Shown here: positions 1,782-29,955 of the stretch, one piece after another | Layout: every line of letters starts with the position of its first letter | How positions within the stretch are numbered: position 1 is the first letter of the stretch | NCBI GenBank assembly: GCA_032718475.1 | Contig: JAUCBJ010000688.1 | Span: 1 to 64,000 of the forward strand | Direction: 5' to 3' | DNA length: 64,000 nucleotides | Source of the DNA: Nemertoderma westbladi | Lineage: Eukaryota > Animalia > Xenacoelomorpha | Translations under genes and position numbers: made by a program | Notes under the pieces: generated by a model | Database searches by the model: none | Told to the model about the DNA's origin: nothing | Seen by the model: the letters and a program-made list of their open reading frames with translations, nothing else

Positions 1782-4039
1782 AGTCTAAATAATATTTGCC
1801 TTCCGGCAAAAATATCTCGCAAAAATTCGAGATATAATTATAATTTAACCGAAATACGGTCAAATTAATTGTCAAATAATCAGTTGGTCCAAATGTCAAA
1901 ATAAATTCGCAATGCAATATTGTGAATTTAATGGGGTATATAGTTATAGCAAATACTAGCACAATATTTAAACAAAATATTATTATATAGCTATTATATA
2001 GCATTAAATACCGGTATAGCACAAAATAACTTTGAATCTAATACAAAATATTCAAAATATACTTGCCGCCCGAATATTTCTAATTTTATATATATATAGC
2101 TCTAATCAACGTAATTTTAATTTCAAATATTATTATGTATCCACTAGCGCGTGGCTACATCTTCGGGTTGCGACTCTCTAACTCTCTCTCTAACTTGAGC
2201 GATTCAAAAAACCATGGCCGGCTAAACCTAAATATCCTAACTAATAAATTGAGTTCAGCTTCGCAGTTAAACAACCGATAATTTTTTACTGCTTCCACAA
2301 ACACACTGGTGCCAACAGAACAACTAACCTTGTTTGCTGTGAGATTCCACGTCCGCGTCCAAAGATTCAGGCCCTTCGCTGATTGCAAACCGAACCCGCA
2401 GACCCACACGAACCCCAAACTCAGAAGTTCCGTCTTGCCATGTATCTCCAGATGGTATAAAATAACTAAGCGGTTACTTAACATACCGGTACAAAACTCT
2501 AGAATTTTACGAAATAATTTTGACCGAAAACTGAATTCTCGCAAACCTAGCTAAAAATTTCAAAAAACTTACTAATTACAATTTGCCCTAAGGCCTAAGG
2601 AACTGCTGTATTCGCAATTAGCAAAAACGCACTACCGTACATCCACTGTATGCAGTACAGTAAGTAAAACAGTACACCAACCTAACAGCCTAATGATACT
2701 GTGTGTGGTACGGCAAAACAAATGTCCCTTCTACCGTACGCAGTAACAGCAATCAGCCTAATGTACTACTGTACTATCGTACGCAACTAGTGAATACAGT
2801 AATCTAAACTAACAGTAGTCTAAACTAACAGCCTAAGAATACTCTATCTGCCTTACTGTACGCAGTACAGCAAAGCAATAGACGCGTATTACTGATAAAC
2901 AACCGCGACCTCTATACTAACAGCAGAACTGTTGAACAGACAAATACTGGTATACTTCTCTGCCAACCTAATAAGTTCCCGCCTAACCAATAAGACACAA
3001 AGACTGCTCTACTGTTAAGTAAAGGGGATCAGGAGCGTGCTATTACTAAATTGTAAGGGTTGCTAAATACAAAACCGCTACTTACCGTTAGATGGCGCTA
3101 ATCTGCCGTCCACTAATATATTTTACTAATTTTACACAACTCCTGCAAAATCGCTTGTTCCTTTCTCTACCGATTGCTCGATAGAGAGCTAACTGTTCGA
3201 ATCTATGAGCCACGCGGGAATAACCAAAACAATAAACCCGAGTCGGCTCCCTAAGCTTACTTAAGACGAGTGCGAGAGGCCTTGCACTCAGAGTATTCTT
3301 ACGCCTAATTTTATCACTATTAAAGCACGCTATTACCTACGTCTTTCTAATCGCGAATACTGGAGGTTCCCTAACGTAATGTGTGAATGCGAGAATATTT
3401 AAAATATCAAAATGGTACAGTATCTGTTTCTACGTGGATAATACCACCCCGGGTCTAAAACTGCCCGCGACTGGCTTTAGGCCAGCAAAATTACTAGCGT
3501 ATCGTGCGTACCGAATAGTGCGTTCTAGCTGATTGCCCACTAATGCAAATAACCGCTCAGCGTGAATAGTTTACAGTACACTAATTATTACCTTAGCTAC
3601 TCTCCGCTATGCTGCGTACTAATTCTTAATTTTTTACTAATTAATTACAGTCACGAATATTTAACAGCGTACTAATTACTAAGAGTTCCAGAATACGTAA
3701 TTCTAATTTATCACGCAACAGGTTTCGATAGTAATAGCCTAAATTGCCGTATTACTTTGACCTAATCAATAACTAATTATTGTAACTAAGAAATAGAAAT
3801 CAATCAAAAGAAAAGAGCGCCTATCTAAGCATTCGTAATCTTAGGCACACTTCAATAACACACCAATCAGCGTTAGAAATCACAGTTTACAATTGTGCAA
3901 TTCACTACTCGTACTCCACACTCAACGTTGTAATACGCGCAGGCCTCTCCCAGGTACATCTAGGATTCCTAACTAACCCAATTCCTGCCCCCCTAATACC
4001 AAATAGAGACAAAATCTGGATCATCAGCCCCCTAATTAC

Positions 4040-5040
4040 TGTACCGGCGATCGGTCTGCGTGCCGCAGTGCAAGTTACCCGCCCGCAACGGTGACCCTGG
4101 CCAGCGTTGCTCGCTTTGAATCCTCCGCTCTCTCCTAGTCGCTCAACCCCCCGATGCGCCCACCGCCCACTGGCACCTTAGCTCTCCATGATGCTAATAG
4201 CTACCGTAGCGGCGCATGCAAATCACAAAGTCTGACAGTCTCAGAATCCCTTAGGATTATTGCGCAGAAAAGAATCACATAGAACCATTAATCAAAGGTA
4301 GAAATCATAGTTCAATTGTAATTAGCAGCAATCAAAGGAATTATTGAGAAACACAAGCAAGTAATCGCACTAGCAAATCATTTCACGAAATTAATCAAAT
4401 TAGCAAATTGCAGAAAGTATCAAGAAAAAACAGCAAGACAGGTGCTAGGGCTAGGTGTCATGTGATGAGTTGATGAGGCTCTACCGGCACACCGCCAATT
4501 TATAGGTGATCCGGATGGGGTGATGCAATAGGGTGACTCAATCGCTTTCTTATTGGCTCTCCAGTCCGTGCTAGCACTAGACCAACCTGGAAGCAGCTAG
4601 TCCAATAAGGAGGCCGGATTGTAGCCCTATTTGCTCCCCTTCCTCGAATTATTACCATATATGGTAATGGTTCACGTCTCTGGCTGCTGAATGGCCAGGA
4701 CAGCGTCCCTATATGCTAGCCCTACTAAAGCTAATATCAGCAAGCACTGAATCCAGGGTCCGAATAAACTTACCCTGGAACTATCTACATATAACCTAAT
4801 ACAAAATTACGTAGGTAGGGCTACATACTATACAAAATGGATGGTTTCAAATATATGGGCGTTTTGATTTCCCTACCTAAATACCACTGCGTTATTATGC
4901 CTTATCTAAAATATCATGCTGCACAACGGACTAATATTACGTACAGTATAACGGACTAATATTGCATACTGCATAACGGACTAATATTGCATACTGCATA
5001 ACGGACTAATAATGTGGATACAGCGCCATATACCGTAACA
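4040..5040 (-). repeat. putative 5' LTR (~1.0 kb)
   Basis: TG...CA ends with imperfect inverted termini (TGTTACGG / TGTACCGG). Minus-strand TATA (CCTATAAAT, ~4498-4506) and CCAAT (~4552-4556). Internal 25-bp tandem repeat AACGGACTAATATTGCATACTGCAT, ~4 copies at ~4925-5010. The second LTR is outside the window, so the inner boundary is unconfirmed. Confidence 0.55.
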
Positions 5041-5113
5041 AAATGTACTACCGATATGTTTGTTTAGGTAAATGTACAACCGATATGTTTGTTTAGGTAA
5101 ATGTACAACCGAT
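5041..5113 (+). repeat. 29-bp tandem repeat spanning the ACO2 splice acceptor (2.5 copies visible)
   Basis: AAATGTAC(T/A)ACCGATATGTTTGTTTAGGT at 5041-5069 and 5070-5098, then AAATGTACAACCGAT continuing into the exon. Confidence 0.9.
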
Positions 5114-5221
5114 CATATATCAGCTGCTGGGCCTTGGCTGAAATACCGCGGCCATCTGGACAACATATCTAACAACTTCTGTATTGGCGCCATAAATATA
5201 GAGAACGACCAAGCCAACAAG
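5097..5221 (+). CDS. ACO2: mitochondrial aconitate hydratase, penultimate exon
   Basis: Encodes (G)[41 protein letters not shown], the aconitase domain-4 TTDHISAAG motif. Acceptor tttgtttag at 5088-5096; donor AAG|GTTAGT at 5221/5222. Confidence 0.95.
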
Positions 5222-8200
5222 GTTAGTCGAAATACAGAGAACGACCAAGCAAACAAGGTTAGTCGAAATATAGAGAACGACCATGCCAACAAGGTTAGTC
5301 GAAATATAGAGAACGACCATGCCAACAAGGTTAGTCGAAATATAGAGAACGACCAAGCAAACAAGGTTAGTCGAAATATAGAGAACGACCAAGCCAACAA
5401 GGTTAGTCGAAATATAGAGAACGACCAAGCCAACAAGGTTAGTCGAAATATAGAGAACGACCAAGCCAACAAGGTTAGTCGAAATACAGAGAACGACCAA
5501 GCAAACAAGGTTAGTCGAAATATAGAGAACGACCATGCCAACAAGGTTAGTCGAAATATAGAGAACGACCATGCCAACAAGGTTAGTCGAAATATAGAGA
5601 ACGACCAAGCAAACAAGGTTAGTCGAAATATAGAGAACGACCAAGCAAACAAGGTTGGTCGAAATATAGAGAGCGACCAAGCCAACAAGGTTAGTCGAAA
5701 TATAGAGAACGACAAAGCCAACAAGGTTAGTCGAAATATAGAGAACGACCACGCAAACAAGGTTAGTCGAAATATAGAGAACGACCAAGCAAACAAGGTT
5801 AGTCGAAATATAGAGAACGACCAAGCAAACAAGGTTAGTCGAAATATAGAGAACGACCAAGCAAACAAGGTTAGTCGAAATATAGAGAACGACCATGCCA
5901 ACAAGGTTAGTCGAAATATAGAGAACGACCATGCCAACAAGGTTAGTCGAAATATAGAGAACGACCATGGGAACAAGGTTAGTCGAAATATAGAGAACGA
6001 CCAAGCAAACAAGGTTAGTCGAAATATAGAGAACGACCAAGCAAACAAGGTTAGTCGAAATATAGAGAACGACCACGCAAACAAGGTTAGTCGAAATATA
6101 GAGAACGACCAAGCAAACAAGGTTAGTCGAAATATAGAGAACGACCAAGCAAACAAGGTTAGTCGAAATATAGAGAACGACCACGCAAACAAGGTTAGTC
6201 GAAATATAGAGAACGACCAAGCAAACAAGGTTAGTCGAAATATAGAGAACGACCAAGCAAACAAGGTTAGTCGAAATATAGAGAACGACCATGCCAACAA
6301 GGTTAGTCGAAATATAGAGAACGACCATGCCAACAAGGTTAGTCGAAATATAGAGAACGACCATGGGAACAAGGTTAGTCGAAATATAGAGAACGACCAA
6401 GCAAACAAGGTTAGTCGAAATATAGAGAACGACCAAGCAAACAAGGTTAGTCGAAATATAGAGAACGACCACGCAAACAAGGTTAGTCGAAATATAGAGA
6501 ACGACAAAGCCAACAAGGTTAGTCGAAATATAGAGAACGACCAAGCAAACAAGGTTAGTCGAAATATAGAGAACGACCACGCAAACAAGGTTAGTCGAAA
6601 TATAGAGAACGACAAAGCCAACAAGGTTAGTCGAAATATAGAGAACGACCAAGCAAACAAGGTTAGTCGAAATATAGAGAACGACCACGCAAACAAGGTT
6701 AGTCGAAATATAGAGAACGACCAAGCAAACAAGGTTAGTCGAAATATAGAGAACGACCAAGCAAACAAGGTTAGTCGAAATATAGAGAACGACCATGCCA
6801 ACAAGGTTAGTCGAAATATAGAGAACGACCATGCCAACAAGGTTAGTCGAAATATAGAGAACGACCATGGGAACAAGGTTAGTCGAAATATAGAGAACGA
6901 CCAAGCAAACAAGGTTAGTCGAAATATAGAGAACGACCAAGCAAACAAGGTTAGTCGAAATATAGAGAACGACCACGCAAACAAGGTTAGTCGAAATATA
7001 GAGAACGACAAAGCCAACAAGGTTAGTCGAAATATAGAGAACGACCACGCAAACAAGGTTAGTCGAAATATAGAGAACGACCAAGCAAACAAGGTTAGTC
7101 GAAATATAGAGAACGACCAAGCAAACAAGGTTAGTCGAAATATAGAGAACGACCAAGCAAACAAGGTTAGTCGAAATATAGAGAACGACCATGCCAACAA
7201 GGTTAGTCGAAATATAGAGAACGACCATGCCAACAAGGTTAGTCGAAATATAGAGAACGACCATGGGAACAAGGTTAGTCGAAATATAGAGAACGACCAA
7301 GCAAACAAGGTTAGTCGAAATATAGAGAACGACCAAGCAAACAAGGTTAGTCGAAATATAGAGAACGACCAAGCCAACAAGGTTAGTCGAAATATAGAGA
7401 ACGACCAAGCAAACAAGGTTAGTCGAAATATAGAGAACGACCAAGCAAACAAGGTTAGTCGAAATATAGAGAACGACCACGCAAACAAGGTTAGTCGAAA
7501 TATAGAGAACGACCAAGCAAACAAGGTTAGTCGAAATATAGAGAACGACCAAGCAAACAAGGTTAGTCGAAATATAGAGAACGACCAAGCAAACAAGGTT
7601 AGTCGAAATATAGAGAACGACCAAGCAAACAAGGTTGGTCGAAATATAGAGAACGACCAAGCAAACAAGGTTAGTCGAAATATAGAGAACGACCAAGCCA
7701 ACAAGGTTAGTCGAAATATAGAGAACGACCATGCCAACAAGGTTAGTCGAAATATAGAGAACGACCATGCCAACAAGGTTAGTCGAAATATAGAGAACGA
7801 CCACGCAAACAAGGTTAGTCGAAATATAGAGAACGACCAAGCCAACAGGGTTAGTCGAAATATAGAGAACGACCAAGCAAACAAGGTTGGTCGAAATATA
7901 GAGAACGACCAAGCAAACAAGGTTAGTCGAAATATAGAGAACGACCACGCAAACAAGGTTAGTCGAAATATAGAGAACGACCACGCAAACAAGGTTAGTC
8001 GAAATATAGAGAACGACCAAGCCAACAATGTTAGTCGAAATATAGAGAACGACCAAGCCAACAATGTTAGTCGAAATATAGAGAACGACCAAGCCAACAA
8101 TGTTAGTCGAAATATAGAGAACGACCAAGCCAACAGGGTTAGTCGAAATATAGAGAACGACCAAGCAAACAAGGTTAGTCGAAATATAGAGAACGACCAA

Positions 8201-11200
8201 GCCAACAATGTTAGTCGAAATATAGAGAACGACCAAGCCAACAGGGTTAGTCGAAATATAGAGAACGACCAAGCAAACAAGGTTAGTCGAAATATAGAGA
8301 ACGACCAAGCAAACAAGGTTAGTCGAAATATAGAGAACGACCAAGCAAACAAGGTTAGTCGAAATATAGAGAACGACCACGCAAACAAGGTTAGTCGAAA
8401 TATAGAGAACGACCAAGCAAACAAGGTTAGTCGAAATATAGAGAACGACCAAGCAAACAAGGTTAGTCGAAATATAGAGAACGACCAAGCAAACAAGGTT
8501 AGTCGAAATATAGAGAACGACCAAGCAAACAAGGTTGGTCGAAATATAGAGAACGACCAAGCAAACAAGGTTAGTCGAAATATAGAGAACGACCACGCAA
8601 ACAAGGTTAGTCGAAATATAGAGAACGACCACGCAAACAAGGTTAGTCGAAATATAGAGAACGACCAAGCCAACAATGTTAGTCGAAATATAGAGAACGA
8701 CCAAGCCAACAATGTTAGTCGAAATATAGAGAACGACCAAGCCAACAATGTTAGTCGAAATATAGAGAACGACCAAGCCAACAGGGTTAGTCGAAATATA
8801 GAGAACGACCAAGCAAACAAGGTTAGTCGAAATATAGAGAACGACCAAGCCAACAATGTTAGTCGAAATATAGAGAACGACCAAGCCAACAAGGTTAGTC
8901 AAAATATAGAGAACGACCAAGCAAACAAGGTTAGTCGAAATATAGAGAACGACCAAGCCAACAAGGTTAGTCGAAATATAGAGAACGACCAAGCAAACAA
9001 GGTTAGTCGAAATATAGAGAACGACCAAGCAAACAAGGTTAGTCGAAATATAGAGAACGACCAAGCCAACAATGTTAGTCGAAATATAGAGAACGACCAA
9101 GCCAACAATGTTAGTCGAAATATAGAGAACGACCAAGCCAACAATGTTAGTCGAAATATAGAGAACGACCAAGCCAACAGGGTTAGTCGAAATATAGAGA
9201 ACGACCAAGCAAACAAGGTTAGTCGAAATATAGAGAACGACCAAGCCAACAATGTTAGTCGAAATATAGAGAACGACCAAGCCAACAAGGTTAGTCGAAA
9301 TATAGAGAACGACCACGCAAACAAGGTTAGTCGAAATATAGAGAACGACCAAGCAAACAAGGTTGGTCGAAATATAGAGAACGACCAAGCAAACAAGGTT
9401 AGTCGAAATATAGAGAACGACCAAGCAAACAAGGTTAGTCGAAATATAGAGAACGACCAAGCAAACAAGGTTAGTCGAAATATAGAGAACGACCAAGCAA
9501 ACAAGGTTAGTCGAAATATAGAGAACGACCAAGCAAACAAGGTTAGTCGAAATATAGAGAACGACCAAGCCAACAAGGTTAGTCGAAATACAGAGAACGA
9601 CCAAGCAAACAAGGTTAGTCGAAATATAGAGAACGACAAAGCCAACAAGGTTAGTCGAAATATAGAGAACGACCACGCAAACAAGGTTAGTCGAAATATA
9701 GAGAACGACCAAGCAAACAAGGTTAGTCGAAATATAGAGAACGACCAAGCCAACAATGTTAGTCGAAATATAGAGAACGACCAAGCCAACAATGTTAGTC
9801 GAAATATAGAGAACGACCAAGCCAACAATGTTAGTCGAAATATAGAGAACGACCAAGCCAACAGGGTTAGTCGAAATATAGAGAACGACCAAGCAAACAA
9901 GGTTAGTCGAAATATAGAGAACGACCAAGCCAACAATGTTAGTCGAAATATAGAGAACGACCAAGCCAACAAGGTTAGTCGAAATATAGAGAACGACCAC
10001 GCAAACAAGGTTAGTCGAAATATAGAGAACGACCAAGCAAACAAGGTTGGTCGAAATATAGAGAACGACCAAGCAAACAAGGTTAGTCGAAATATAGAGA
10101 ACGACCAAGCAAACAAGGTTAGTCGAAATATAGAGAACGACCAAGCAAACAAGGTTAGTCGAAATATAGAGAACGACCAAGCAAACAAGGTTAGTCGAAA
10201 TATAGAGAACGACCAAGCAAACAAGGTTAGTCGAAATATAGAGAACGACCAAGCCAACAAGGTTAGTCGAAATATAGAGAACGACCAAGCAAACAAGGTT
10301 AGTCGAAATATAGAGAACGACCAAGCCAACAAGGTTAGTCGAAATATAGAGAACGACCAAGCAAACAAGGTTAGTCGAAATATAGAGAACGACCAAGCAA
10401 ACAAGGTTAGTCGAAATATAGAGAACGACCAAGCAAACAAGGTTAGTCGAAATATAGAGAACGACCATGCCAACAAGGTTAGTCGAAATATAGAGAACGA
10501 CCAAGCAAACAAGGTTAGTCGAAATATAGAGAACGACCAAGCAAACAAGGTTAGTCGAAATATAGAGAACGACCAAGCAAACAAGGTTAGTCGAAATATA
10601 GAGAACGACCAAGCAAACAAGGTTAGTCGAAATATAGAGAACGACCAAGCAAACAAGGTTAGTCGAAATATAGAGAACGACCAAGCAAACAAGGTTAGTC
10701 GAAATATAGAGAACGACCAAGCAAACAAGGTTAGTCGAAATATAGAGAACGACCAAGCAAACAAGGTTAGTCGAAATATAGAGAACGACCAAGCCAACAA
10801 GGTTAGTCGAAATATAGAGAACGACCAAGCAAACAAGGTTAGTCGAAATATAGAGAACGACCAAGCCAACAAGGTTAGTCGAAATATAGAGAACGACCAT
10901 GCCAACAAGGTTAGTCGAAATATAGAGAACGACCAAGCAAACAAGGTTAGTCGAAATATAGAGAACGACCAAGCAAACAAGGTTGGTCGAAATATAGAGA
11001 ACGACCAAGCCAACAAGGTTAGTCGAAATATAGAGAACGACCAAGCCAACAAGGTTAGTCGAAATATAGAGAACGACCAAGCAAACAAGGTTAGTCGAAA
11101 TATAGAGAACGACCAAGCAAACAAGGTTAGTCGAAATATAGAGAACGACCAAGCAAACAAGGTTAGTCGAAATATAGAGAACGACCAAGCAAACAAGGTT

Positions 11201-14200
11201 AGTCGAAATATAGAGAACGACCATGCCAACAAGGTTAGTCGAAATATAGAGAACGACCAAGCCAACAAGGTTAGTCGAAATATAGAGAACGACCAAGCCA
11301 ACAAGGTTAGTCGAAATATAGAGAACGACCAAGCAAACAAGGTTAGTCGAAATATAGAGAACGACCAAGCAAACAAGGTTAGTCGAAATATAGAGAACGA
11401 CCAAGCAAACAAGGTTAGTCGAAATATAGAGAACGACCAAGCAAACAAGGTTAGTCGAAATATAGAGAACGACCAAGCAAACAAGGTTAGTCGAAATATA
11501 GAGAACGACCAAGCAAACAAGGTTAGTCGAAATATAGAGAACGACCAAGCAAACAAGGTTAGTCGAAATATAGAGAACGACCAAGCAAACAAGGTTAGTC
11601 GAAATATAGAGAACGACCAAGCAAACAAGGTTAGTCGAAATATAGAGAACGACCAAGCCAACAAGGTTAGTCGAAATATAGAGAACGACCAAGCCAACAA
11701 GGTTAGTCGAAATATAGAGAACGACCAAGCCAACAAGGTTAGTCGAAATATAGAGAACGACCAAGCAAACAAGGTTAGTCGAAATATAGAGAACGACCAA
11801 GCAAACAAGGTTAGTCGAAATATAGAGAACGACCAAGCAAACAAGGTTAGTCGAAATATAGAGAACGACCAAGCAAACAAGGTTAGTCGAAATATAGAGA
11901 ACGACCAAGCAAACAAGGTTAGTCGAAATATAGAGAACGACCAAGCAAACAAGGTTAGTCGAAATATAGAGAACGACCATGCCAACAAGGTTAGTCGAAA
12001 TATAGAGAACGACCAAGCCAACAAGGTTAGTCGAAATATAGAGAACGACCAAGCAAACAAGGTTAGTCGAAATATAGAGAACGACCAAGCAAACAAGGTT
12101 AGTCGAAATATAGAGAACGACCAAGCAAACAAGGTTAGTCGAAATATAGAGAACGACCAAGCAAACAAGGTTAGTCGAAATATAGAGAACGACCAAGCAA
12201 ACAAGGTTAGTCGAAATATAGAGAACGACCAAGCAAACAAGGTTAGTCGAAATATAGAGAACGACCAAGCAAACAAGGTTAGTCGAAATATAGAGAACGA
12301 CCAAGCAAACAAGGTTAGTCGAAATATAGAGAACGACCAAGCCAACAAGGTTAGTCGAAATATAGAGAACGACCAAGCCAACAAGGTTAGTCGAAATATA
12401 GAGAACGACCATGCCAACAAGGTTAGTCGAAATATAGAGAACGACCAAGCAAACAAGGTTAGTCGAAATATAGAGAACGACCAAGCAAACAAGGTTAGTC
12501 GAAATATAGAGAACGACCAAGCAAACAAGGTTAGTCGAAATATAGAGAACGACCAAGCAAACAAGGTTAGTCGAAATATAGAGAACGACCAAGCAAACAA
12601 GGTTAGTCGAAATATAGAGAACGACCAAGCAAACAAGGTTAGTCGAAATATAGAGAACGACCAAGCAAACAAGGTTAGTCGAAATATAGAGAACGACCAA
12701 GCCAACAAGGTTAGTCGAAATATAGAGAACGACCAAGCAAACAAGGTTAGTCGAAATATAGAGAACGACCAAGCAAACAAGGTTAGTCGAAATATAGAGA
12801 ACGACCAAGCAAACAAGGTTAGTCGAAATATAGAGAACGACCAAGCAAACAAGGTTAGTCGAAATATAGAGAACGACCAAGCAAACAAGGTTAGTCGAAA
12901 TATAGAGAACGACCAAGCCAACAAGGTTAGTCGAAATATAGAGAACGACCAAGCAAACAAGGTTAGTCGAAATATAGAGAACGACCAAGCAAACAAGGTT
13001 AGTCGAAATATAGAGAACGACCATGCCAACAAGGTTAGTCGAAATATAGAGAACGACCAAGCAAACAAGGTTAGTCGAAATATAGAGAACGACCAAGCCA
13101 ACAAGGTTAGTCGAAATATAGAGAACGACCAAGCAAACAAGGTTAGTCGAAATATAGAGAACGACCAAGCAAACAAGGTTAGTCGAAATATAGAGAACGA
13201 CCAAGCAAACAAGGTTAGTCGAAATATAGAGAACGACCAAGCAAACAAGGTTGGTCGAAATATAGAGAACGACCATGCCAACAAGGTTAGTCGAAATATA
13301 GAGAACGACCAAGCCAACAAGGTTAGTCGAAATATAGAGAACGACCAAGCCAACAAGGTTAGTCGAAATATAGAGAACGACCAAGCCAACAAGGTTAGTC
13401 GAAATATAGAGAACGACCAAGCAAACAAGGTTAGTCGAAATATAGAGAACGACCAAGCAAACAAGGTTAGTCGAAATATAGAGAACGACCAAGCAAACAA
13501 GGTTAGTCGAAATATAGAGAACGACCAAGCAAACAAGGTTAGTCGAAATATAGAGAACGACCAAGCAAACAAGGTTAGTCGAAATATAGAGAACGACCAA
13601 GCAAACAAGGTTAGTCGAAATATAGAGAACGACCAAGCAAACAAGGTTAGTCGAAATATAGAGAACGACCAAGCAAACAAGGTTAGTCGAAATATAGAGA
13701 ACGACCAAGCAAACAAGGTTAGTCGAAATATAGAGAACGACCAAGCAAACAAGGTTAGTCGAAATATAGAGAACGACCAAGCAAACAAGGTTAGTCGAAA
13801 TATAGAGAACGACCAAGCAAACAAGGTTAGTCGAAATATAGAGAACGACCAAGCAAACAAGGTTAGTCGAAATATAGAGAACGACCAAGCAAACAAGGTT
13901 AGTCGAAATATAGAGAACGACCAAGCAAACAAGGTTAGTCGAAATATAGAGAACGACCAAGCAAACAAGGTTAGTCGAAATATAGAGAACGACCAAGCAA
14001 ACAAGGTTAGTCGAAATATAGAGAACGACCAAGCAAACAAGGTTAGTCGAAATATAGAGAACGACCAAGCCAACAAGGTTAGTCGAAATATAGAGAACGA
14101 CCAAGCCAACAAGGTTAGTCGAAATATAGAGAACGACCAAGCAAACAAGGTTAGTCGAAATATAGAGAACGACCAAGCAAACAAGGTTAGTCGAAATATA

Positions 14201-17200
14201 GAGAACGACCAAGCAAACAAGGTTAGTCGAAATATAGAGAACGACCAAGCAAACAAGGTTAGTCGAAATATAGAGAACGACCAAGCAAACAAGGTTAGTC
14301 GAAATATAGAGAACGACCAAGCAAACAAGGTTAGTCGAAATATAGAGAACGACCAAGCAAACAAGGTTAGTCGAAATATAGAGAACGACCAAGCAAACAA
14401 GGTTAGTCGAAATATAGAGAACGACCAAGCCAACAAGGTTAGTCGAAATATAGAGAACGACCAAGCCAACAAGGTTAGTCGAAATATAGAGAACGACCAA
14501 GCAAACAAGGTTAGTCGAAATATAGAGAACGACCAAGCAAACAAGGTTAGTCGAAATATAGAGAACGACCAAGCAAACAAGGTTAGTCGAAATATAGAGA
14601 ACGACCAAGCAAACAAGGTTAGTCGAAATATAGAGAACGACCAAGCAAACAAGGTTAGTCGAAATATAGAGAACGACCAAGCAAACAAGGTTAGTCGAAA
14701 TATAGAGAACGACCAAGCCAACAAGGTTAGTCGAAATATAGAGAACGACCAAGCAACAAGGTTAGTCGAAATATAGAGAAGACCAGCAACAAGGTTAGTC
14801 GAAATATAGAGAACGACCAAGCAAACAAGGTTAGTCGAAATATAGAGAACGACCAAGCAAACAAGGTTAGTCGAAATATAGAGAACGACCAAGCAAACAA
14901 GGTTAGTCGAAATATAGAGAACGACCAAGCAAACAAGGTTAGTCGAAATATAGAGAACGACCAAGCAAACAAGGTTAGTCGAAATATAGAGAACGACCAA
15001 GCAAACAAGGTTAGTCGAAATATAGAGAACGACCAAGCAAACAAGGTTAGTCGAAATATAGAGAACGACCAAGCAAACAAGGTTAGTCGAAATATAGAGA
15101 ACGACCAAGCAAACAAGGTTAGTCGAAATATAGAGAACGACCAAGCAAACAAGGTTAGTCGAAATATAGAGAACGACCAAGCAAACAAGGTTAGTCGAAA
15201 TATAGAGAACGACCAAGCCAACAAGGTTAGTCGAAATATAGAGAACGACCAAGCAAACAAGGTTAGTCGAAATATAGAGAACGACCAAGCAAACAAGGTT
15301 AGTCGAAATATAGAGAACGACCAAGCAAACAAGGTTAGTCGAAATATAGAGAACGACCAAGCAAACAAGGTTAGTCGAAATATAGAGAACGACCAAGCAA
15401 ACAAGGTTAGTCGAAATATAGAGAACGACCAAGCAAACAAGGTTAGTCGAAATATAGAGAACGACCAAGCAAACAAGGTTAGTCGAAATATAGAGAACGA
15501 CCAAGCAAACAAGGTTAGTCGAAATATAGAGAACGACCAAGCAAACAAGGTTAGTCGAAATATAGAGAACGACCAAGCAAACAAGGTTAGTCGAAATATA
15601 GAGAACGACCAAGCAAACAAGGTTAGTCGAAATATAGAGAACGACCAAGCAAACAAGGTTAGTCGAAATATAGAGAACGACCAAGCCAACAAGGTTAGTC
15701 GAAATATAGAGAACGACCAAGCAAACAAGGTTAGTCGAAATATAGAGAACGACCAAGCAAACAAGGTTAGTCGAAATATAGAGAACGACCAAGCAAACAA
15801 GGTTAGTCGAAATATAGAGAACGACCAAGCCAACAAGGTTAGTCGAAATATAGAGAACGACCAAGCAAACAAGGTTAGTCGAAATATAGAGAACGACCAA
15901 GCAAACAAGGTTAGTCGAAATATAGAGAACGACCAAGCAAACAAGGTTAGTCGAAATATAGAGAACGACCAAGCAAACAAGGTTAGTCGAAATATAGAGA
16001 ACGACCAAGCAAACAAGGTTAGTCGAAATATAGAGAACGACCAAGCCAACAAGGTTAGTCGAAATATAGAGAACGACCAAGCAAACAAGGTTAGTCGAAA
16101 TATAGAGAACGACCAAGCAAACAAGGTTAGTCGAAATATAGAGAACGACCAAGCAAACAAGGTTAGTCGAAATATAGAGAACGACCAAGCAAACAAGGTT
16201 AGTCGAAATATAGAGAACGACCAAGCAAACAAGGTTAGTCGAAATATAGAGAACGACCAAGCCAACAAGGTTAGTCGAAATATAGAGAACGACCAAGCAA
16301 ACAAGGTTAGTCGAAATATAGAGAACGACCAAGCCAACAAGGTTAGTCGAAATATAGAGAACGACCAAGCCAACAAGGTTAGTCGAAATATAGAGAACGA
16401 CCAAGCAAACAAGGTTAGTCGAAATATAGAGAACGACCAAGCAAACAAGGTTAGTCGAAATATAGAGAACGACCAAGCAAACAAGGTTAGTCGAAATATA
16501 GAGAACGACCAAGCCAACAAGGTTAGTCGAAATATAGAGAACGACCAAGCAAACAAGGTTAGTCGAAATATAGAGAACGACCAAGCAAACAAGGTTAGTC
16601 GAAATATAGAGAACGACCAAGCAAACAAGGTTAGTCGAAATATAGAGAACGACCAAGCAAACAAGGTTAGTCGAAATATAGAGAACGACCAAGCCAACAA
16701 GGTTAGTCGAAATATAGAGAACGACCAAGCAAACAAGGTTAGTCGAAATATAGAGAACGACCAAGCAAACAAGGTTAGTCGAAATATAGAGAACGACCAA
16801 GCAAACAAGGTTAGTCGAAATATAGAGAACGACCAAGCAAACAAGGTTAGTCGAAATATAGAGAACGACCAAGCAAACAAGGTTAGTCGAAATATAGAGA
16901 ACGACCAAGCCAACAAGGTTAGTCGAAATATAGAGAACGACCAAGCAAACAAGGTTAGTCGAAATATAGAGAACGACCAAGCAAACAAGGTTAGTCGAAA
17001 TATAGAGAACGACCAAGCCAACAAGGTTAGTCGAAATATAGAGAACGACCAAGCCAACAAGGTTAGTCGAAATATAGAGAACGACCAAGCCAACAAGGTT
17101 AGTCGAAATATAGAGAGCGACCAAGCAAACAAGGTTAGTCGAAATATAGAGAACGACCAAGCAAACAAGGTTAGTCGAAATATAGAGAACGACCAAGCAA

Positions 17201-20200
17201 ACAAGGTTAGTCGAAATATAGAGAACGACCAAGCAAACAAGGTTAGTCGAAATATAGAGAACGACCAAGCAAACAAGGTTAGTCGAAATATAGAGAACGA
17301 CCAAGCAAACAAGGTTAGTCGAAATATAGAGAACGACCAAGCAAACAAGGTTAGTCGAAATATAGAGAACGACCAAGCAAACAAGGTTAGTCGAAATATA
17401 GAGAACGACCAAGCAAACAAGGTTAGTCGAAATATAGAGAACGACCAAGCAAACAAGGTTAGTCGAAATATAGAGAACGACCAAGCAAACAAGGTTAGTC
17501 GAAATATAGAGAACGACCAAGCAAACAAGGTTAGTCGAAATATAGAGAACGACCAAGCAAACAAGGTTAGTCGAAATATAGAGAACGACCAAGCCAACAA
17601 GGTTAGTCGAAATATAGAGAACGACCAAGCAAACAAGGTTAGTCGAAATATAGAGAACGACCAAGCAAACAAGGTTAGTCGAAATATAGAGAACGACCAA
17701 GCAAACAAGGTTAGTCGAAATATAGAGAACGACCAAGCAAACAAGGTTAGTCGAAATATAGAGAACGACCAAGCAAACAAGGTTAGTCGAAATATAGAGA
17801 ACGACCAAGCAAACAAGGTTAGTCGAAATATAGAGAACGACCAAGCAAACAAGGTTAGTCGAAATATAGAGAACGACCAAGCAAACAAGGTTAGTCGAAA
17901 TATAGAGAACGACCAAGCAAACAAGGTTAGTCGAAATATAGAGAACGACCATGCCAACAAGGTTAGTCGAAATATAGAGAACGACCAAGCCAACAAGGTT
18001 AGTCGAAATATAGAGAACGACCACGCAAACAAGGTTAGTCGAAATATAGAGAACGACCATGCCAACAAGGTTAGTCGAAATATAGAGAACGACCAAGCAA
18101 ACAAGGTTAGTCGAAATATAGAGAACGACCAAGCCAACAAGGTTAGTCGAAATATAGAGAACGACCAAGCAAACAAGGTTAGTCGAAATATAGAGAACGA
18201 CCAAGCAAACAAGGTTAGTCGAAATATAGAGAACGACCACGCAAACAAGGTTAGTCGAAATATAGAGAACGACCATGCCAACAAGGTTAGTCGAAATATA
18301 GAGAACGACCAAGCAAACAAGGTTAGTCGAAATATAGAGAACGACCAAGCAAACAAGGTTAGTCGAAATATAGAGAACGACCAAGCAAACAAGGTTAGTC
18401 GAAATATAGAGAACGACCAAGCAAACAAGGTTAGTCGAAATATAGAGAACGACCACGCAAACAAGGTTAGTCGAAATATAGAGAACGACCAAGCAAACAA
18501 GGTTAGTCGAAATATAGAGAACGACCAAGCCAACAAGGTTAGTCGAAATATAGAGAACGACCAAGCAAACAAGGTTAGTCGAAATATAGAGAACGACCAA
18601 GCCAACAAGGTTAGTCGAAATATAGAGAACGACCAAGCAAACAAGGTTAGTCGAAATATAGAGAACGACCAAGCAAACAAGGTTAGTCGAAATATAGAGA
18701 ACGACCAAGCCAACAAGGTTAGTCGAAATATAGAGAACGACCAAGCCAACAAGGTTAGTCGAAATATAGAGAACGACCAAGCCAACAAGGTTAGTCGAAA
18801 TATAGAGAACGACCAAGCCAACAAGGTTAGTCGAAATATAGAGAACGACCACGCAAACAAGGTTAGTCGAAATATAGAGAACGACCAAGCAAACAAGGTT
18901 AGTCGAAATATAGAGAACGACCAAGCAAACAAGGTTAGTCGAAATATAGAGAACGACCAAGCCAACAAGGTTAGTCGAAATATAGAGAACGACCAAGCAA
19001 ACAAGGTTAGTCGAAATATAGAGAACGACCAAGCCAACAAGGTTAGTCGAAATATAGAGAACGACCAAGCAAACAAGGTTAGTCGAAATATAGAGAACGA
19101 CCAAGCAAACAAGGTTAGTCGAAATATAGAGAACGACCAAGCAAACAAGGTTAGTCGAAATATAGAGAACGACCAAGCCAACAAGGTTAGTCGAAATATA
19201 GAGAACGACCAAGCAAACAAGGTTAGTCGAAATATAGAGAACGACCAAGCAAACAAGGTTAGTCGAAATATAGAGAACGACCAAGCAAACAAGGTTAGTC
19301 GAAATATAGAGAACGACCAAGCAAACAAGGTTAGTCGAAATATAGAGAACGACCAAGCAAACAAGGTTAGTCGAAATATAGAGAACGACCAAGCCAACAA
19401 GGTTAGTCGAAATATAGAGAACGACCAAGCAAACAAGGTTAGTCGAAATATAGAGAACGACCAAGCCAACAAGGTTAGTCGAAATATAGAGAACGACCAA
19501 GCCAACAAGGTTAGTCGAAATATAGAGAACGACCAAGCAAACAAGGTTAGTCGAAATATAGAGAACGACCAAGCAAACAAGGTTAGTCGAAATATAGAGA
19601 ACGACCAAGCAAACAAGGTTAGTCGAAATATAGAGAACGACCAAGCCAACAAGGTTAGTCGAAATATAGAGAACGACCAAGCAAACAAGGTTAGTCGAAA
19701 TATAGAGAACGACCAAGCAAACAAGGTTAGTCGAAATATAGAGAACGACCAAGCAAACAAGGTTAGTCGAAATATAGAGAACGACCAAGCAAACAAGGTT
19801 AGTCGAAATATAGAGAACGACCAAGCCAACAAGGTTAGTCGAAATATAGAGAACGACCAAGCAAACAAGGTTAGTCGAAATATAGAGAACGACCAAGCCA
19901 ACAAGGTTAGTCGAAATATAGAGAACGACCAAGCAAACAAGGTTAGTCGAAATATAGAGAACGACCAAGCAAACAAGGTTAGTCGAAATATAGAGAACGA
20001 CCAAGCAAACAAGGTTAGTCGAAATATAGAGAACGACCAAGCCAACAAGGTTAGTCGAAATATAGAGAACGACCAAGCCAACAAGGTTAGTCGAAATATA
20101 GAGAACGACCAAGCAAACAAGGTTAGTCGAAATATAGAGAACGACCAAGCCAACAAGGTTAGTCGAAATATAGAGAGCGACCAAGCCAACAAGGTTAGTC

Positions 20201-22296
20201 GAAATATAGAGAACGACCAAGCCAACAAGGTTAGTCGAAATATAGAGAGCGACCAAGCCAACAAGGTTAGTCGAAATATAGAGAACGACCAAGCAAACAA
20301 GGTTAGTCGAAATATAGAGAACGACCAAGCCAACAAGGTTAGTCGAAATATAGAGAACGACCAAGCAAACAAGGTTAGTCGAAATATAGAGAACGACCAC
20401 GCAAACAAGGTTAGTCGAAATATAGAGAACGACCAAGCCAACAAGGTTAGTCGAAATATAGAGAACGACCAAGCCTACAAGGTTAGTCGAAATATAGAGA
20501 ACGACCAAGCAAACAAGGTTAGTCGAAATATAGAGAACGACCAAGCCAACAAGGTTAGTCGAAATATAGAGAGCGACCAAGCCAACAAGGTTAGTCGAAA
20601 TATAGAGAACGACCAAGCAAACAAGGTTAGTCGAAATATAGAGAACGACCAAGCCAACAAGGTTAGTCGAAATATAGAGAACGACCAAGCAAACAAGGTT
20701 AGTCGAAATATAGAGAACGACCAAGCCAACAAGGTTAGTCGAAATATAGAGAACGACCAAGCAAACAAGGTTAGTCGAAATATAGAGAACGACCACGCAA
20801 ACAAGGTTAGTCGAAATATAGAGAACGACCAAGCAAACAAGGTTAGTCGAAATATAGAGAACGACCACGCAAACAAGGTTAGTCGAAATATAGAGAACGA
20901 CCACGCAAACAAGGTTAGTCGAAATATAGAGAACGACCAAGCAAACAAGGTTAGTCGAAATATAGAGAACGACCAAGCAAACAAGGTTAGTCGAAATATA
21001 GAGAACGACCAAGCAAACAAGGTTAGTCGAAATATAGAGAACGACCACGCAAACAAGGTTAGTCGAAATATAGAGAACGACCAAGCAAACAAGGTTAGTC
21101 GAAATATAGAGAACGACCACGCAAACAAGGTTAGTCGAAATATAGAGAACGACCAAGCAAACAAGGTTAGTCGAAATATAGAGAACGACCACGCAAACAA
21201 GGTTAGTCGAAATATAGAGAACGACCAAGCAAACAAGGTTAGTCGAAATATAGAGAACGACCAAGCAAACAAGGTTAGTCGAAATATAGAGAACGACCAA
21301 GCCAACAAGGTTAGTCGAAATATAGAGAACGACCAAGCCAACAAGGTTAGTCGAAATATAGAGAACGACCAAGCAAACAAGGTTAGTCGAAATATAGAGA
21401 ACGACCAAGCCAACAAGGTTAGTCGAAATATAGAGAACGACCAAGCAAACAAGGTTAGTCGAAATATAGAGAACGACCAAGCCAACAAGGTTAGTCGAAA
21501 TATAGAGAACGACCAAGCCAACAAGGTTAGTCGAAATATAGAGAACGACCAAGCAAACAAGGTTAGTCGAAATATAGAGAACGACCAAGCAAACAAGGTT
21601 AGTCGAAATATAGAGAACGACCAAGCAAACAAGGTTAGTCGAAATATAGAGAACGACCAAGCCAACAAGGTTAGTCGAAATATAGAGAACGACCATGCCA
21701 ACAAGGTTAGTCGAAATATAGAGAACGACCAAGCCAACAAGGTTAGTCGAAATATAGAGAACGACCAAGCCAACAAGGTTAGTCGAAATATAGAGAACGA
21801 CCAAGCAAACAAGGTTAGTCGAAATATAGAGAACGACCAAGCAAACAAGGTTAGTCGAAATATAGAGAACGACCAAGCAAACAAGGTTAGTCGAAATATA
21901 GAGAACGACCAAGCAAACAAGGTTAGTCGAAATATAGAGAACGACCAAGCCAACAAGGTTAGTCGAAATATAGAGAACGACCACGCAAACAAGGTTTGTC
22001 GAAATATAGAGAACGACCAAGCAAACAAGGTTAGTCGAAATATAGAGAACGACCACGCAAACAAGGTTAGTCGAAATATAGAGAACGACCAAGCAAACAA
22101 GGTTAGTCGAAATATAGATAACGACCAAGCCAACAAGGTTAGTCGAAATATAGAGAACGACCAAGCCAACAGGGTTAGTCGAAATATAGAGAACGACCAA
22201 GCAAACAAGGTTAGTCGAAATATAGAGAACGACCAAGCAAACAAGGTTAGTCGAAATATAGATAACGACCAAGCCAACAAGGTTAGTCGAAATATA
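5194..22296 (+). repeat. 36-bp minisatellite (~475 copies, ~17.1 kb) built from the ACO2 exon/intron junction
   Basis: Unit AAATATAGAGAACGACCAAGC(A/C)AACAAG|GTTAGTCG = last 28 exonic nt + first 8 intronic nt; translates [13 protein letters not shown] net 4-bp deletion across two units at ~14750-14790 is the only phase break seen. Confidence 0.98.
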
Positions 22297-22379
22297 AAGA
22301 AGGAACTAAAGTAAAAAGGTGTTGTCGAAGTAGAGAATGAATCACTTGATTTAATTTATAATATCAATTTATAAACATA

Positions 22380-22512
22380 TGTTATATATTTATATATTTA
22401 TTATTATTATTATTTTATTTATATAATATATATATATATAATATTAATATAATAATATTATAATATTAATATAATAATATAATAATATTAATATTATTAT
22501 TATTTATATATA
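22380..22512. repeat. AT-only low-complexity tract (TA/TAA repeats), probable SINE tail
   Basis: Nearly pure A/T sequence (tattattattat, tatatata, ataatattaat) at the 3' end of the minus-strand SINE-like element. Confidence 0.6.
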
Positions 22513-23985
22513 TTTCCTACCAGCTACAGTTATGTTGAACAGTTAGCCGAAGCCGGAGGCGACCCAATGGCTCCTCCTTTCGATAGCTGCTACTCCTATC
22601 CCTTGTTTTCCTATCTCCTTGTTTTCTATCTTCCTATCTAGGCGCTACTATCTGCTACCCGAAGGTAGGGGTGGGCGCTACTCCTATCTGCTACCCGAGG
22701 GTAGGGGTGGGCGCTACTCCTATCTGCTACCCGAAGGTAGGGGAGGGCGCTACTCCTATCTGCTACCCGAAGGTAGGGGTGGGCGCTACTCCTATCTGCT
22801 ACCCGAGTGTAGGGGTGGGCGCTACTCCTATCTGCTAGCCGAAGGTAGGGGTTGGCGCTACTCCTATCTGCTACCCGAAGGTAGGGGTGGGCGCTACTCC
22901 TATCTGCTACCCGAGGGTAGGGGTGGGCGCTACTCCTATCTGCTACCCGAAGGTAGGGGAGGGCGCTACTCCTATCTGCTACCCGAAGGTAGGGGTGGGC
23001 GCTACTCCTATCTGCTACCCGAGGGTAGGGGTGGGCGCTACTCCTATCTGCTACCCGAAGGTAGGGGTGGGCGCTACTCCTATCTGCTACCCGAAGGTAG
23101 GGGTGGGCGCCACTCCTATCTGATACCCGAAGGTAGGGGTGGGCGCTACTCCTATCTGCTACCCGAGGGTAGGGGTGGGCGCTACTCCTATCTGCTACCC
23201 GAAGGTAGGGGTGGGCGCTACTCCTATCTGCTACCCGAGGGTAGGGGTGGGCGCTACTCCTATCTGCTACCCGAAGGTAGGGGTGGGCGCTACTCCTATC
23301 TGCTACCCGAGGATAGGGGTGGGCGTTACTCCTATCTGCTACCCGAGGCTAGGGGTGGGCGCTACTCCTATCTGCTACCCAAGGGTAGGGGTGGGCGCTA
23401 CTCCTATCTGCTACCCGAGGGTAGGGGTGGGCGCTACTCCTATCTGCTACCCGAGGCTAGGGGTGGGCGCTACTCCTATCTGCTACCCGAGGGTAGGGGT
23501 GGGCGCTACTCCTATCTGCTACCCGAGGGTAGGGGTGGGCGCTACTCCTATCTGCTACCCGAAGGTAGGGGTGGGCGCTACTCCTATCTGCTACCCGAGG
23601 ATAGGGGTGGGCGCTACTCCTATCTGCTACCCGAGGGTAGGGGTGGGCGTTACTCCTATCTGCTACCCGAGGCTAGGGGTGGGCGCTACTCCTATCTGCT
23701 ACCCGAGGGTAGGGGTGGGCGCTACTCCTATCTGCTACCCGAGGGTATGGGTGGGCGCTACTCCTATCTGCTACCCGAGGGTAGGGGTGGGCGCTACTCC
23801 TATCTGCTACCCGAGGGTAGGGGTGGGCGCTACTCCTATCTACTACTCCTATCCCTTGTTTTCCTCCCAGTAATTCAACTGGTGCTCATTTTATCGACCC
23901 CAGTGGATGGACCCTGGCGGGGCTCGAACCTTCAACCCCGATTGTAAGCCTGGCGTTCAACCAACGAACTAAGCTACCCAGTCAG
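22513..23985 (-). mobile_element. tRNA-derived SINE carrying an expanded internal minisatellite
   Basis: Minus strand reads GGGTAGCTTAGTTCGTTGGTTGAACGCC (A-box-like), then GGTTCGAGCCC (B box), then CATCCACTGGGGTCGATAAAATGAGCACCAG. The latter resembles from memory the conserved core of Meta/RUDI/Sauria-type SINEs. It ends in an AT-rich tail. Confidence 0.65.
22641..23850. repeat. 36-bp GC-rich minisatellite (~33 copies)
   Basis: Unit CTACTCCTATCTGCTACCCGA(A/G)GGTAGGGGTGGGCG, flanked on both sides by CTACTCCTATCCCTTGTTTTCCT. Confidence 0.95.
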
Positions 23986-24045
23986 TTTCATTTATGTTTT
24001 AATAGTCCTTTGTTTACAATTTGTAATTTATTATAATTAATTCAG

Positions 24046-24501
24046 GTGAAGAATGTTTTAACTGGAGACTATGAGGGAGTACCAGACACCGCTCGCAAGT
24101 ACAAGGCGGCCAATATCCCGTGGGTTGTAGTCGGAGACGAGAACTATGGAGAAGGGAGTAGTCGCGAACACGCAGCATTGGAACCCAGACACCTCGGGGG
24201 CAGAGCTATCATTGTGAAAAGTTTCGCGAGAATACACGAAACCAACCTCAAGAAACAAGGCGTTCTGCCACTCACATTCAGTTCGCCGTCCCATTACGAT
24301 AAAGTCAGACCGGACGATAGGATCTCTCTCCTAGGATTGGCTAATCTGTCTCCAGGGAAACAGGTCGAATGCGTGCTGACTCACAGCGATGGAACCAAAG
24401 ACTCTATTATGCTGAATCAATCGATGAATCAGGGACAGATTGAGTGGTTCAAGGCTGGCAGCGCTCTTAACAAAATGGCTCGCGACTTGGCTGGTAAATA
24501 G
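24046..24501 (+). CDS. ACO2: mitochondrial aconitate hydratase, last exon
   Basis: Acceptor ttcag|GTG. Encodes [20 protein letters not shown]...[43 protein letters not shown]...[12 protein letters not shown]. Splices in phase 0 to the exon ending at 5221 to give ENDQANK|VKNV, collinear with ACO2 orthologs. Confidence 0.97.
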
Positions 24502-24888
24502 AACATTCTAGAATTCGCGTAGATTATAAACGTACATTTTATTGGTTAACTGTGACATCGTTTGTTAGCACATAAAAGTAGTTAGTTAGAGGCATGTACC
24601 TAAATATTTTATATTTATATCGCTACCTTGTCGTTCAAAGTGTGCTAACTAAGCAAGTAGTTATTGATAGTAAAAATGTTTGAATAATGAACCTCCTTAG
24701 ATTATGACTATTTAATATACTTTTTTCGATTCAGGGTAAATATCGGTGGTAAATTTCTTCCCGTTTTTTTTAAGTTATGAGTGTCGTAATTCTACGCAAA
24801 AACACAAATAAATAATTATATTTACACAATAATTTATGTTATAATATTTACGCATAAAATTAATCCACAACAGAAAGCTTTTATTCTA

Positions 24889-26412
24889 CTACAGTTCATC
24901 TTTCTTCTTGTCTTCTCCACTCTCTTCTGCGAACTCTTTCATTGTATTATCAATGAACTTCGCTAACTTCTCCAACTCCCATACGCCACTGTAATCGGCA
25001 ACTCGATTGTCAATTTGCATGAAAAGTTTCACCGAAGGAAACTCATCAACTACAATGTCGTAAAGCTGATTGGCCGTAGCGTCTATCTTACCGAAGACAA
25101 TATCATTGTTATCTTTATACTTTTCGGCCAGTTCTTCTAATAATTTATCCAGTTTCTCACAGAGTCGGCAGGAAGGTCCTAAGAATCCCACTAAAGCATT
25201 AACACCAGAATTTCGTACAACCTCATGGAAAGTTCTACCAACTAACACCTTAACTGGCTTATCGAACCAACCTTCAGGTATCGGCTCACTTTCATGCTGA
25301 CTCATTATTTTACCTTCCAAACATTGATTCACGAATTCTTCTACATTTTCCCTTGATATTTTTTCTAAAACTTTTGGTTTATATATCTTCATATCGCCCT
25401 CTAGACTTTGCACAACTCTGACTGTAGGGATATCTGAGTCGTACAACTGGAAGTATTCCAAAACTCGGAAATTATCTTTCAAAGTCGCTTCAATAAATAC
25501 GAATAAAACTCTACCTTTAAAAAGTTCAGCAGTTTCCTCAAACTCCTTCAGTATGTCAGCGAATCCCTCAGACAGATGGTCTGCAAACAGAAACGCGTGA
25601 CGTTTAATATGACCGTCGAATAATATTGAAGCGGTATCGTCAGTAAAGTCGACCACTAACGGAAGTTTGCTGTGCCTTATAAACGAGGCCAAAGCCTTAA
25701 GAGTAACTTCGCCTTTATATTGGTCTCGCGAGTTCCCTTTATTTTTGAATACAACAATCTCATTGTCGTCCACTCCCATGTCTTTCATAACTGCGATATC
25801 AGTTATCAAACCGAATGTAACATCGTAAGCTTTCACGTAACTCACTACTTCCATGAATACCATGGCTTTATACGAATTTACGTCAGTAAAAAATCCCATA
25901 ACTACGTTGTTATCGTTTATAATATCGTTAGCGGCCTTGATATCATTAATGTCTACGGGTGTGGATGGTGACGTCATGTGTTTCAACCAGGCCACTAATT
26001 CCGGGGTTTCACGACTCCCTTCATATTCTTCTGGGTTGTCGGTATCTCCATTAATGTATAAATGTATCGTCGGGTAAGCCGCAACATTAAGCTGTTTAGC
26101 AAGGTCAGCCTCTACAGTGGCATCGATTTGTCCTAATCGAACAGGAATGTTTCTTTCTTTGACTATTTCAGCAACGCCTTCGTAGACTGGGGCCAACTCC
26201 TTACAATGCTGACACCAGGGGGCGTACCATTGGACCAATAGGAAGTCAGTTGTACGCAAAGCCTCATCCCAATTGGTCGAATTGAGTAATAAAACGTGAT
26301 TCTTTTCCCCTAAATAACTTATCGATTGGGAATATCCGAAGACAAAACAATTAATTACACAGAGATACGATATTACCTTCCATCTCGTTAACCGAGAGGT
26401 AACAACCGACAT
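24889..26412 (-). CDS. protein disulfide isomerase family protein (a-b-b'-a' architecture, KDEL), intronless, ~507 aa
   Basis: First ATG at 26412 followed by a hydrophobic signal-like segment. Motifs LVQWYAPWCQHCKELAP, IDAT, YPTI, KPVKVLVG, second site GPSCRLC, and C-terminal KKDEL. Confidence 0.92.
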   Translation of the reverse strand: MSVVTSRLTRWKVISYLCVINCFVFGYSQSISYLGEKNHVLLLNSTNWDEALRTTDFLLVQWYAPWCQHCKELAPVYEGVAEIVKERNIPVRLGQIDATVEADLAKQLNVAAYPTIHLYINGDTDNPEEYEGSRETPELVAWLKHMTSPSTPVDINDIKAANDIINDNNVVMGFFTDVNSYKAMVFMEVVSYVKAYDVTFGLITDIAVMKDMGVDDNEIVVFKNKGNSRDQYKGEVTLKALASFIRHSKLPLVVDFTDDTASILFDGHIKRHAFLFADHLSEGFADILKEFEETAELFKGRVLFVFIEATLKDNFRVLEYFQLYDSDIPTVRVVQSLEGDMKIYKPKVLEKISRENVEEFVNQCLEGKIMSQHESEPIPEGWFDKPVKVLVGRTFHEVVRNSGVNALVGFLGPSCRLCEKLDKLLEELAEKYKDNNDIVFGKIDATANQLYDIVVDEFPSVKLFMQIDNRVADYSGVWELEKLAKFIDNTMKEFAEESGEDKKKDEL

Positions 26413-26880
26413 CTCGGAATATTGATATATTATTTCCAATATGTTTCACAAAAACAATGTATGTATGTATGTGTTCTAATTAAAAATAATTTATAATTAA
26501 AAATTTCCGTAGGTGGGAGAATGTATGAGGCCTACCACATTCAGCCGTTTGGGTGTCAATAATTCAATACGTGGCCACACCGTATTGTCAAGTTTAACCC
26601 AATAAGGTGGTAACAATTTCACATCGGTGCCAACAAAAGGAGTTTTCTATTTCTACTTCAGCACGTTTAGGTCACGTACCGGTACATAGCTAACCTAATC
26701 GTGGCAACAAAGCAGTGGGTGGTGGTTTGGTAGTTACATACAGTTAGTTAGATGTGTGGGATTTGTATTGGATTTGTGCCGGTTGTTAGTTTTAAATCTT
26801 GAAATATTTCACAAGTGATTTGGTTTTTGTCGAGCTGTTCACTTCTATACAGGGACCCTATAATAATATCTCAGTGAACC

Positions 26881-29517: not shown

Positions 29518-29955
29518 ACTAGGATCGGCATGCTGCATTGCAGCTGCATTTTTAAGAATGCTGTGCCGGCTTGTCGACAAAATTGCACCGCCACAACTCC
29601 CTATCACCCATGACATTTGCTAGATCATCCGCATCTTCAAAGCCAGTGTCCTTTAATATGCGTCTCAAAAAAGTCATGGGCTGTCCACCATGCTTATTCA
29701 CTCCATGAGGCTGCCAAAGTACAAGAATATGCACTGGCTGGTCCTCACGGCGAAAGCAATGTCCTGCACAGCGGAGGCGATTTTGTTCTAGTGTCAAGCT
29801 TGGGGGAACCAATGAGACACCTCCAATGTTATATAGTGTCTGGTTGGAGATGTGTGCATTGTACTTGACACAATGAACCCGGCGTAACATTCTTGTGAAT
29901 GTGCCATCCAGAGATTTGGTGTCCTCAGCAGTTAGAGCCCAGCATGGACTCCCAT
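29518..29955 (-). mobile_element. 5'-truncated RTE-like non-LTR retrotransposon, 3' end (copy 1)
   Basis: Encodes GSPCWALTAEDTKSLDGTFTRMLRRV...RLRCAGHCFRREDQP. It is the reverse complement of 30578-31015. Confidence 0.85.

Follow-up and report, generated by a model that had tools for sequence, protein, structure and literature searches.

The ACO2 locus and its junction array

The window analyzed here is the whole 64,000-nt stretch at the start of contig JAUCBJ010000688.1 from Nemertoderma westbladi (assembly GCA_032718475.1), and all coordinates are window positions on its forward strand. It contains two exons of the aconitase gene ACO2, separated by an intron that is filled for the most part by tandem copies of its own upstream exon/intron junction. 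The two exons were recognized by tblastn with two orthologs, which gave matches at 5096-5224 and at 24043/24046-24483, the earlier exons being outside the window (Table 1). Joining 5221 to 24046 leaves 53 amino acids between two motifs, which is the ortholog spacing: the same distance is found in 113 of the 115 motif-bearing segments (120 homologues), and the other two are shorter. An earlier sequence-only reading of the window had stated that ACO2 orthologs carry no insert here, and this is borne out. The Aconitase_C exon is at most 78% identical to any of the 120 proteins listed, and the relatives found in a metagenome scan (3 of 64 parts scanned, 80 of 592 loci kept) show only 59-72% identity. 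AG/GT sites (slash, splice position) are present at both introns flanking the 125-nt exon (5093-5100, 5220-5223 and 24044-24047).

Table 1. Features of the ACO2 region (X1, X2, X3 and X5 are sequencing runs)
Feature	Position	Strand	Basis or remark
End of a high-copy interspersed element, abutting and apparently cutting the first acceptor-repeat unit	5012..5043		Summed depth 42,000-67,000, varied loose ends behind 5043-5047 (X1, X3); single copy in window
Acceptor duplication, 2.5 copies of 29 bp each (17 nt of exon, which encode KCTTD, plus 12 nt of intron)	5039..5113	+	Tandem Repeats Finder (TRF), scan
ACO2 internal exon, 125 nt, phase-1 start, KCTTDH...NDQANK, phase-0 end	5097..5221	+	tblastn; both ends set by X2 and X5 spliced contigs; translation
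Junction minisatellite, 475 x 36 bp	5194..22289	+	Unit 0 with the real donor (5221/5222), then 474 decoy donors; high DNA depth in X1 and X3
GT-AG intron, 18,824 nt, 91% array	5222..24045	+	X2 contig joins across
Two adjacent short units (265 and 266; 35 and 33 nt), frame-shifting	14734..14801	+	Sole indel units among 475; later donors out of frame
Decayed array edge, about 1.4 degenerate units	22290..22340	+	22301-22360 aligns locally with score 36; none of 2,000 shuffles scored as high
Second, unrelated 36-bp array, 33 copies, same intron, apparently in a high-copy interspersed element; spans no splice site	22648..23846		TRF
ACO2 last coding exon (Aconitase_C) and stop codon	24046..24501	+	Pfam; X2 contig over 24044-24659 with 0 differences

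TRF delimits the array at 5194-22301, with a period of 36, 475.3 copies and 97% matches, and unit parsing resolves 475 whole units, 473 of them 36 nt long, which agrees with the approximately 475 copies first claimed. Each unit consists of the final 28 nt of the 125-nt exon followed by the first 8 nt of the intron (GTTAGTCG), and the real boundary at 5221 lies inside unit 0, so that the tandem unit crosses the exon/intron boundary. The donor GT is intact in every one of the 475 units and the complete AAG/GTTAGT in 443, and the sequence-only reading was also right on this composition and on the donor being kept in nearly all copies. Over the 28 exon and 6 intron nucleotides 85 units are identical, unit 0 among them. 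GTTAGT is an ordinary donor locally, since by eye it occurs at 3 of 11 putative donors of the neighboring UNC5-like gene.

The donors of units k=0 to k=264 are in the aconitase frame, the last one being at 14725, and the first stop in this frame is met at 14774. The earlier count of 265 in-frame, stop-free copies is therefore exact, and the limit exists because units 265 and 266 are short by one and three bases, that is, because of four single-base deletions in two adjacent units. These indels are likely a consensus error, in which case the real array may stay in frame throughout. The significance attached to the open frame did not stand: the chance that a random junction unit is both a multiple of 3 and stop-free is about 0.26. 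Selection for an open frame or for GT retention was likewise rejected, the chances that the 15 substitution types seen among the units create no stop and spare the GT being 0.57 and 0.42, respectively. Finally, we rejected a coding tandem repeat, as 13 of these 15 types alter the amino acid and no unit is found in the joined contigs described below.

The units are not equally divergent along the array: differences per unit amount to about 1.0 toward the 5' end and fall to 0.13 in the middle. Multi-unit blocks recur, 11 ten-unit words with rare variants being repeated versus 0 in 200 shuffles. Altogether, the ordered blocks, the uniform middle and the decayed 3' tail are the pattern of real tandem turnover, with concerted evolution inside the cluster and not at its edges. 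Five arrays occupy 39% of the window, so that array growth is common in this region.

The sequence-only reading had itself raised the possibility of an assembly expansion, in which a short junction duplication would have been inflated during assembly. The indel patch does resemble a local consensus error, the array is spanned by no single record, and X1, one of the two runs in which we followed the unit, may be the source of the assembly. However, the summed depth of the unit is 5,104-31,623 in X1 versus 16 for single-copy sequence (lowest ratio 319) and 5,943-9,906 in X3 versus 24.9 (lowest ratio 239), and X3 was made from another sample, which shows 20 substitutions over 4,023 nt of flanking sequence. 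A unit depth at least 239-fold that of single-copy sequence in two different samples, together with higher-order variant blocks that shuffles do not produce and with the decayed edge, makes an artefact very unlikely. Hundreds of unit copies are present in both samples, and the exact count of 475 could be off.

Donor choice in the spliced contigs

The splicing of this intron can be followed in contigs of the runs X2 and X5. An X2 contig (record 9; 1,885 nt, depth 1,474) aligns by its letters 614-742 to 5095-5223 and by its letters 2-617 to 24044-24659, both without any mismatch or gap. The join between 5221 and 24046 is thus read from two separate alignments of one contig, and the four letters that both alignments share are the AGGT common to both ends, which means that zero repeat units were retained. 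The loose end of the X2 contig before 24044 corresponds to 5190-5219 and has a single occurrence in the window. In the same way, an X5 contig (record 18; 1,147 nt, depth 124) covers 5095-5223 and continues with 24048-24077, and this is the same junction as in X2. X5 shares its sample (S3) with the DNA run X3, in which the array unit is present at high depth. DNA contigs of X1, X3 and X4 continue unjoined from the last exon into the intron at 24046, which makes the joined form unlike a retrocopy. We infer that X2 and X5 are transcriptomes from the splicing at both ends of the 125-nt exon and, for X2, also from contigs that end where genes end and from a loose end of poly(A).

Altogether, regular splicing is undisturbed in the dominant contigs, which carry a junction of ortholog length, and the main mRNA uses the first donor (5221), a statement that applies to the main isoform only. 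This fits the proposal that the spliceosome picks the first of the equivalent donors. The units k=1 to 264 are in frame and nonsense-mediated decay could not hide them, so that the dominance of k=0 is likely a matter of splice-site choice and not of clean-up. Folding of three RNA stretches, done with no shuffles, put the first and later donors under the same weak hairpin and gave no structural reason for the choice. Over 5012-5280, X2 and X5 have one record each, the spliced form, and 5228-5280 is uncovered; we did not use this as evidence, as the gap is not informative, the DNA runs X1 and X3 also being without cover on the exon core at 5120-5191. At another place X2 retained a 60-nt branch with a depth of 5.4.

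One could assume that the choice is leaky: the first donor would dominate, and a minor share of splicing, either overall or in certain tissues only, would go to donors k=1-4. The resulting exons of 161-269 nt would lengthen aconitase by 12-48 residues. The decoy donors are in frame and 85 units match over the donor context, and the available text of PMC1557585 cites IFI6 and CBS as genes where the next two pseudo-sites are also used. Moreover, rare variants are lost from contigs, and minor isoforms could escape in this way. On the other hand, the X2 contig is unbroken across both sides of the junction. The units are without coding constraint, as most substitution types change the residue, the 115 ortholog segments contain no insert, and F7, as far as the available text of PMC1557585 describes it, uses the most upstream site alone with up to 12 repeats. 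The ladder of length isoforms suggested by the sequence-only reading is hence without positive support, and we consider leaky use unlikely.

Stepwise removal of the intron, by recursive splicing or by Rogers-type re-splicing through the AG/GT of each unit, would yield the same final mRNA. Every unit has this motif, as do the two intron ends of the exon. Recursive splicing is defined by an internal AG/GT that follows a pyrimidine tract. The five AGs of the unit are preceded by only 0-25% T (20 nt before) and 25-35% C+T, versus 45-55% and 60-65% at the ACO2 acceptors, so that the units are devoid of acceptors and recursive splicing was rejected. Rogers-type intron birth, in which a unit would be an exon tail joined to the head of the next exon around AG/GT, was rejected as well: the 8 intron nucleotides match the start of the exon at 24046 at 3 of 8 letters, which points to a real intron head and not to a copied exon piece. 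The stepwise removal that had also been put forward is therefore unsupported and appears extremely improbable.

We thus propose, with a probability of roughly 0.85, that this is an intronic minisatellite of 475 ACO2 junction copies whose main product is spliced from the first donor, the other 474 being lost with the intron, and that the array is likely neutral passenger DNA. Several points speak against this proposal. The run records give X2 and X5 as "DNA?" and not as RNA, all eight runs being entered as "DNA?" or "?". Contigs lose rare forms, so that low-level use of k>=1 could escape. Summed contig depth gives neither copy number nor location. Finally, the commonest variant by unit count (145 units) is silent, but it carries the same base as the exon itself.

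The make-up of the unit, the use of the first donor in two samples, a drift-like variation among the units and the decayed 3' edge are observed. As to the mechanism, a local duplication across the junction could have seeded the array, and slippage or unequal exchange could then have amplified and homogenized the units. The array would persist since the exon-proximal donor is committed first and the enzyme is unchanged. We propose that the donor is likely chosen co-transcriptionally, on a first-come basis, or by exon definition.

The acceptor side of the exon and the neighboring sequence

The sequence-only reading overlooked that the acceptor of the same exon is also duplicated (Table 1). This repeat has a decoy AG at 5066-5067 and the used AG, which is the innermost one, at 5095-5096, the X2 and X5 contigs entering the exon at 5095-5097. 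In this respect the acceptor side mirrors the donor side. The upstream AG leads to a stop after 8 codons, and decay could thus mask its use.

A 54-nt X1 contig over two of the 29-bp units has a depth of 13,771 versus 16 for single-copy sequence, that is, about 860-fold, and the summed depth of the unit peaks at 162,000 in X1 and at 142,000 in X3. Such extreme depth means that a large acceptor-junction array is present in both samples, outside the window. As an interspersed element appears to cut the first unit, the remainder of this array may be located before it in that intron; alternatively, it could belong to another haplotype, have been collapsed or form an unlinked satellite. One X1 loose end, possibly an edge of the acceptor array, had no match in the window. 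A tentative hypothesis, which we hold to be possible and somewhat less than probable, would then be that the exon is flanked on each side by a giant array of its own splice sites: the 474 decoy donors that follow it and, in the intron before it, decoy acceptors numbering several hundred or more, which inserted repeats would separate from the exon here or which would be collapsed in the assembly. The spliceosome would take the innermost pair almost without error, on the donor side without nonsense-mediated decay. If this is true, we found no natural test of first-come or exon-definition choice more extreme than this sandwiched exon.

Beside the acceptor repeat, 3.9 copies of a 25-bp repeat occur at 4915-5043, adjoining the terminus of a very high-copy element. 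Further upstream in the same ACO2 intron, an open frame of 594 or more amino acids (3-1784, minus strand) encodes a charged repeat with no Pfam family; a retrotransposon gag-like gene is possibly present here, and this is a guess. In the intron that hosts the array, the region 22540-23985 around the 33-copy array looks like a high-copy tRNA-derived short interspersed nuclear element (SINE) in minus-strand orientation and stops about 60 nt short of the ACO2 acceptor. By eye its minus strand has motifs which we take to be tRNA-like A and B boxes. ARAGORN detected no tRNA in this SINE-like element. The summed depth at 23860-24041 in the DNA runs is 15,000-30,000.

Beyond ACO2, two intronless genes are covered by X2 contigs, one for a protein disulfide isomerase ending in KDEL (24889-26412, minus strand) and one for a short-chain dehydrogenase (26881-27633, plus strand). 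They are followed by an inverted 441-nt pair of 96% identity (29518-29958 and 30575-31015), fragments resembling a long interspersed nuclear element. The UNC5-like gene lies at 35187-46911 on the minus strand (TSP1, ZU5 and Death by Pfam), and its introns contain a 33-bp and a 42-bp array. Judged by eye, neither of the two crosses a splice site, the 33-bp array beginning about 57 nt past a putative donor. Between 5194 and 42435 the period of each of the five large arrays is divisible by 3 (36, 36, 30, 33 and 42). The post-hoc chance that 5 of 5 would be so is 0.004, and with the 25- and 29-bp repeats included (5 of 7) it rises to 0.045; the 29-mer, being high-copy, counts against a multiple-of-3 rule.

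Comparison with known junction repeats

A parallel can be drawn with the 37-bp variable number of tandem repeats in intron 7 of human F7. Borensztajn et al. (2006, PMC1557585) describe that splicing there takes the most upstream donor alone among the 5-9 present, and that the decoy donors function once the first is lost. As in F7, the first monomer of the ACO2 array lies across the exon/intron boundary, the downstream donors are identical, and the first donor is the dominant one in the contigs. However, the F7 repeat has 5-9 copies, up to 12 in constructs, and 4 exon nt per unit, whereas ACO2 has 475 copies of 28 exon nt each, the period being divisible by 3 and the unit free of stops. The same source cites minisatellites of 10-26 copies in IFI6 (6-16), CBS intron 13, LMNB2 and PDGF intron 4, in which the donor is reiterated after the real one. 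In LMNB2 and PDGF, as cited there, only the real donor is used; in IFI6 and CBS the next two pseudo-sites are used too. ACO2 resembles the former, with a real donor that is used and decoys that follow, and differs from the latter in that the next two pseudo-sites are absent from its dominant contigs.

A resemblance is also found with the so-called mirages of the lancelet (amphioxus), repeats which, in the available text of Ebner et al. (2010, PMC3087553) and of PMC3902484, can affect either boundary, leave splicing undisturbed and are homogenized inside. The examples given are the globins BflGb6 and BflGb9 and Adh3 (PMC3087553) and PGBD5 and troponin C (PMC3902484), with units of 10-72 bp in Adh3 and 3-6 units in BflGb6 (PMC3087553). 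Four features are shared with the ACO2 array: a unit that spans the boundary, a retained splice signal, intact regular splicing and internal homogenization. In contrast to the 3-6 units of the BflGb6 mirage, the ACO2 array has 475 units and 17 kb, and unlike the mirages as described in these texts, both boundaries of one exon are duplicated. The ACO2 array is therefore a junction minisatellite of the mirage or F7 type, a known kind, and its novelty is its size, far above the 3-26 copies published in the texts available. The earlier statement that each outcome of donor choice would be unusual was overstated, as junction minisatellites using the first donor are on record in these sources (PMC1557585, PMC3087553, PMC3902484), and the size is the unusual part. 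Our literature searches, whose coverage left out most subscription papers, returned no report of the ACO2 locus or of a junction array this large; the passages considered in PMC10078293 and PMC12783039 do not concern such arrays.

As the main mRNA is normal, the ACO2 product is unchanged by the array. A warning is nevertheless due for gene predictors, which could read through 3,200 codons of repeat. The value of the locus is that of a test case, in which in-frame decoys let a wrong choice survive decay, so that it can be counted as a 36-nt ladder in long RNA reads, with the variant units serving as barcodes for the donor used. It gauges the strictness of upstream-first donor choice in an array about 40-fold the largest F7 construct, and in an animal that is not a vertebrate model.

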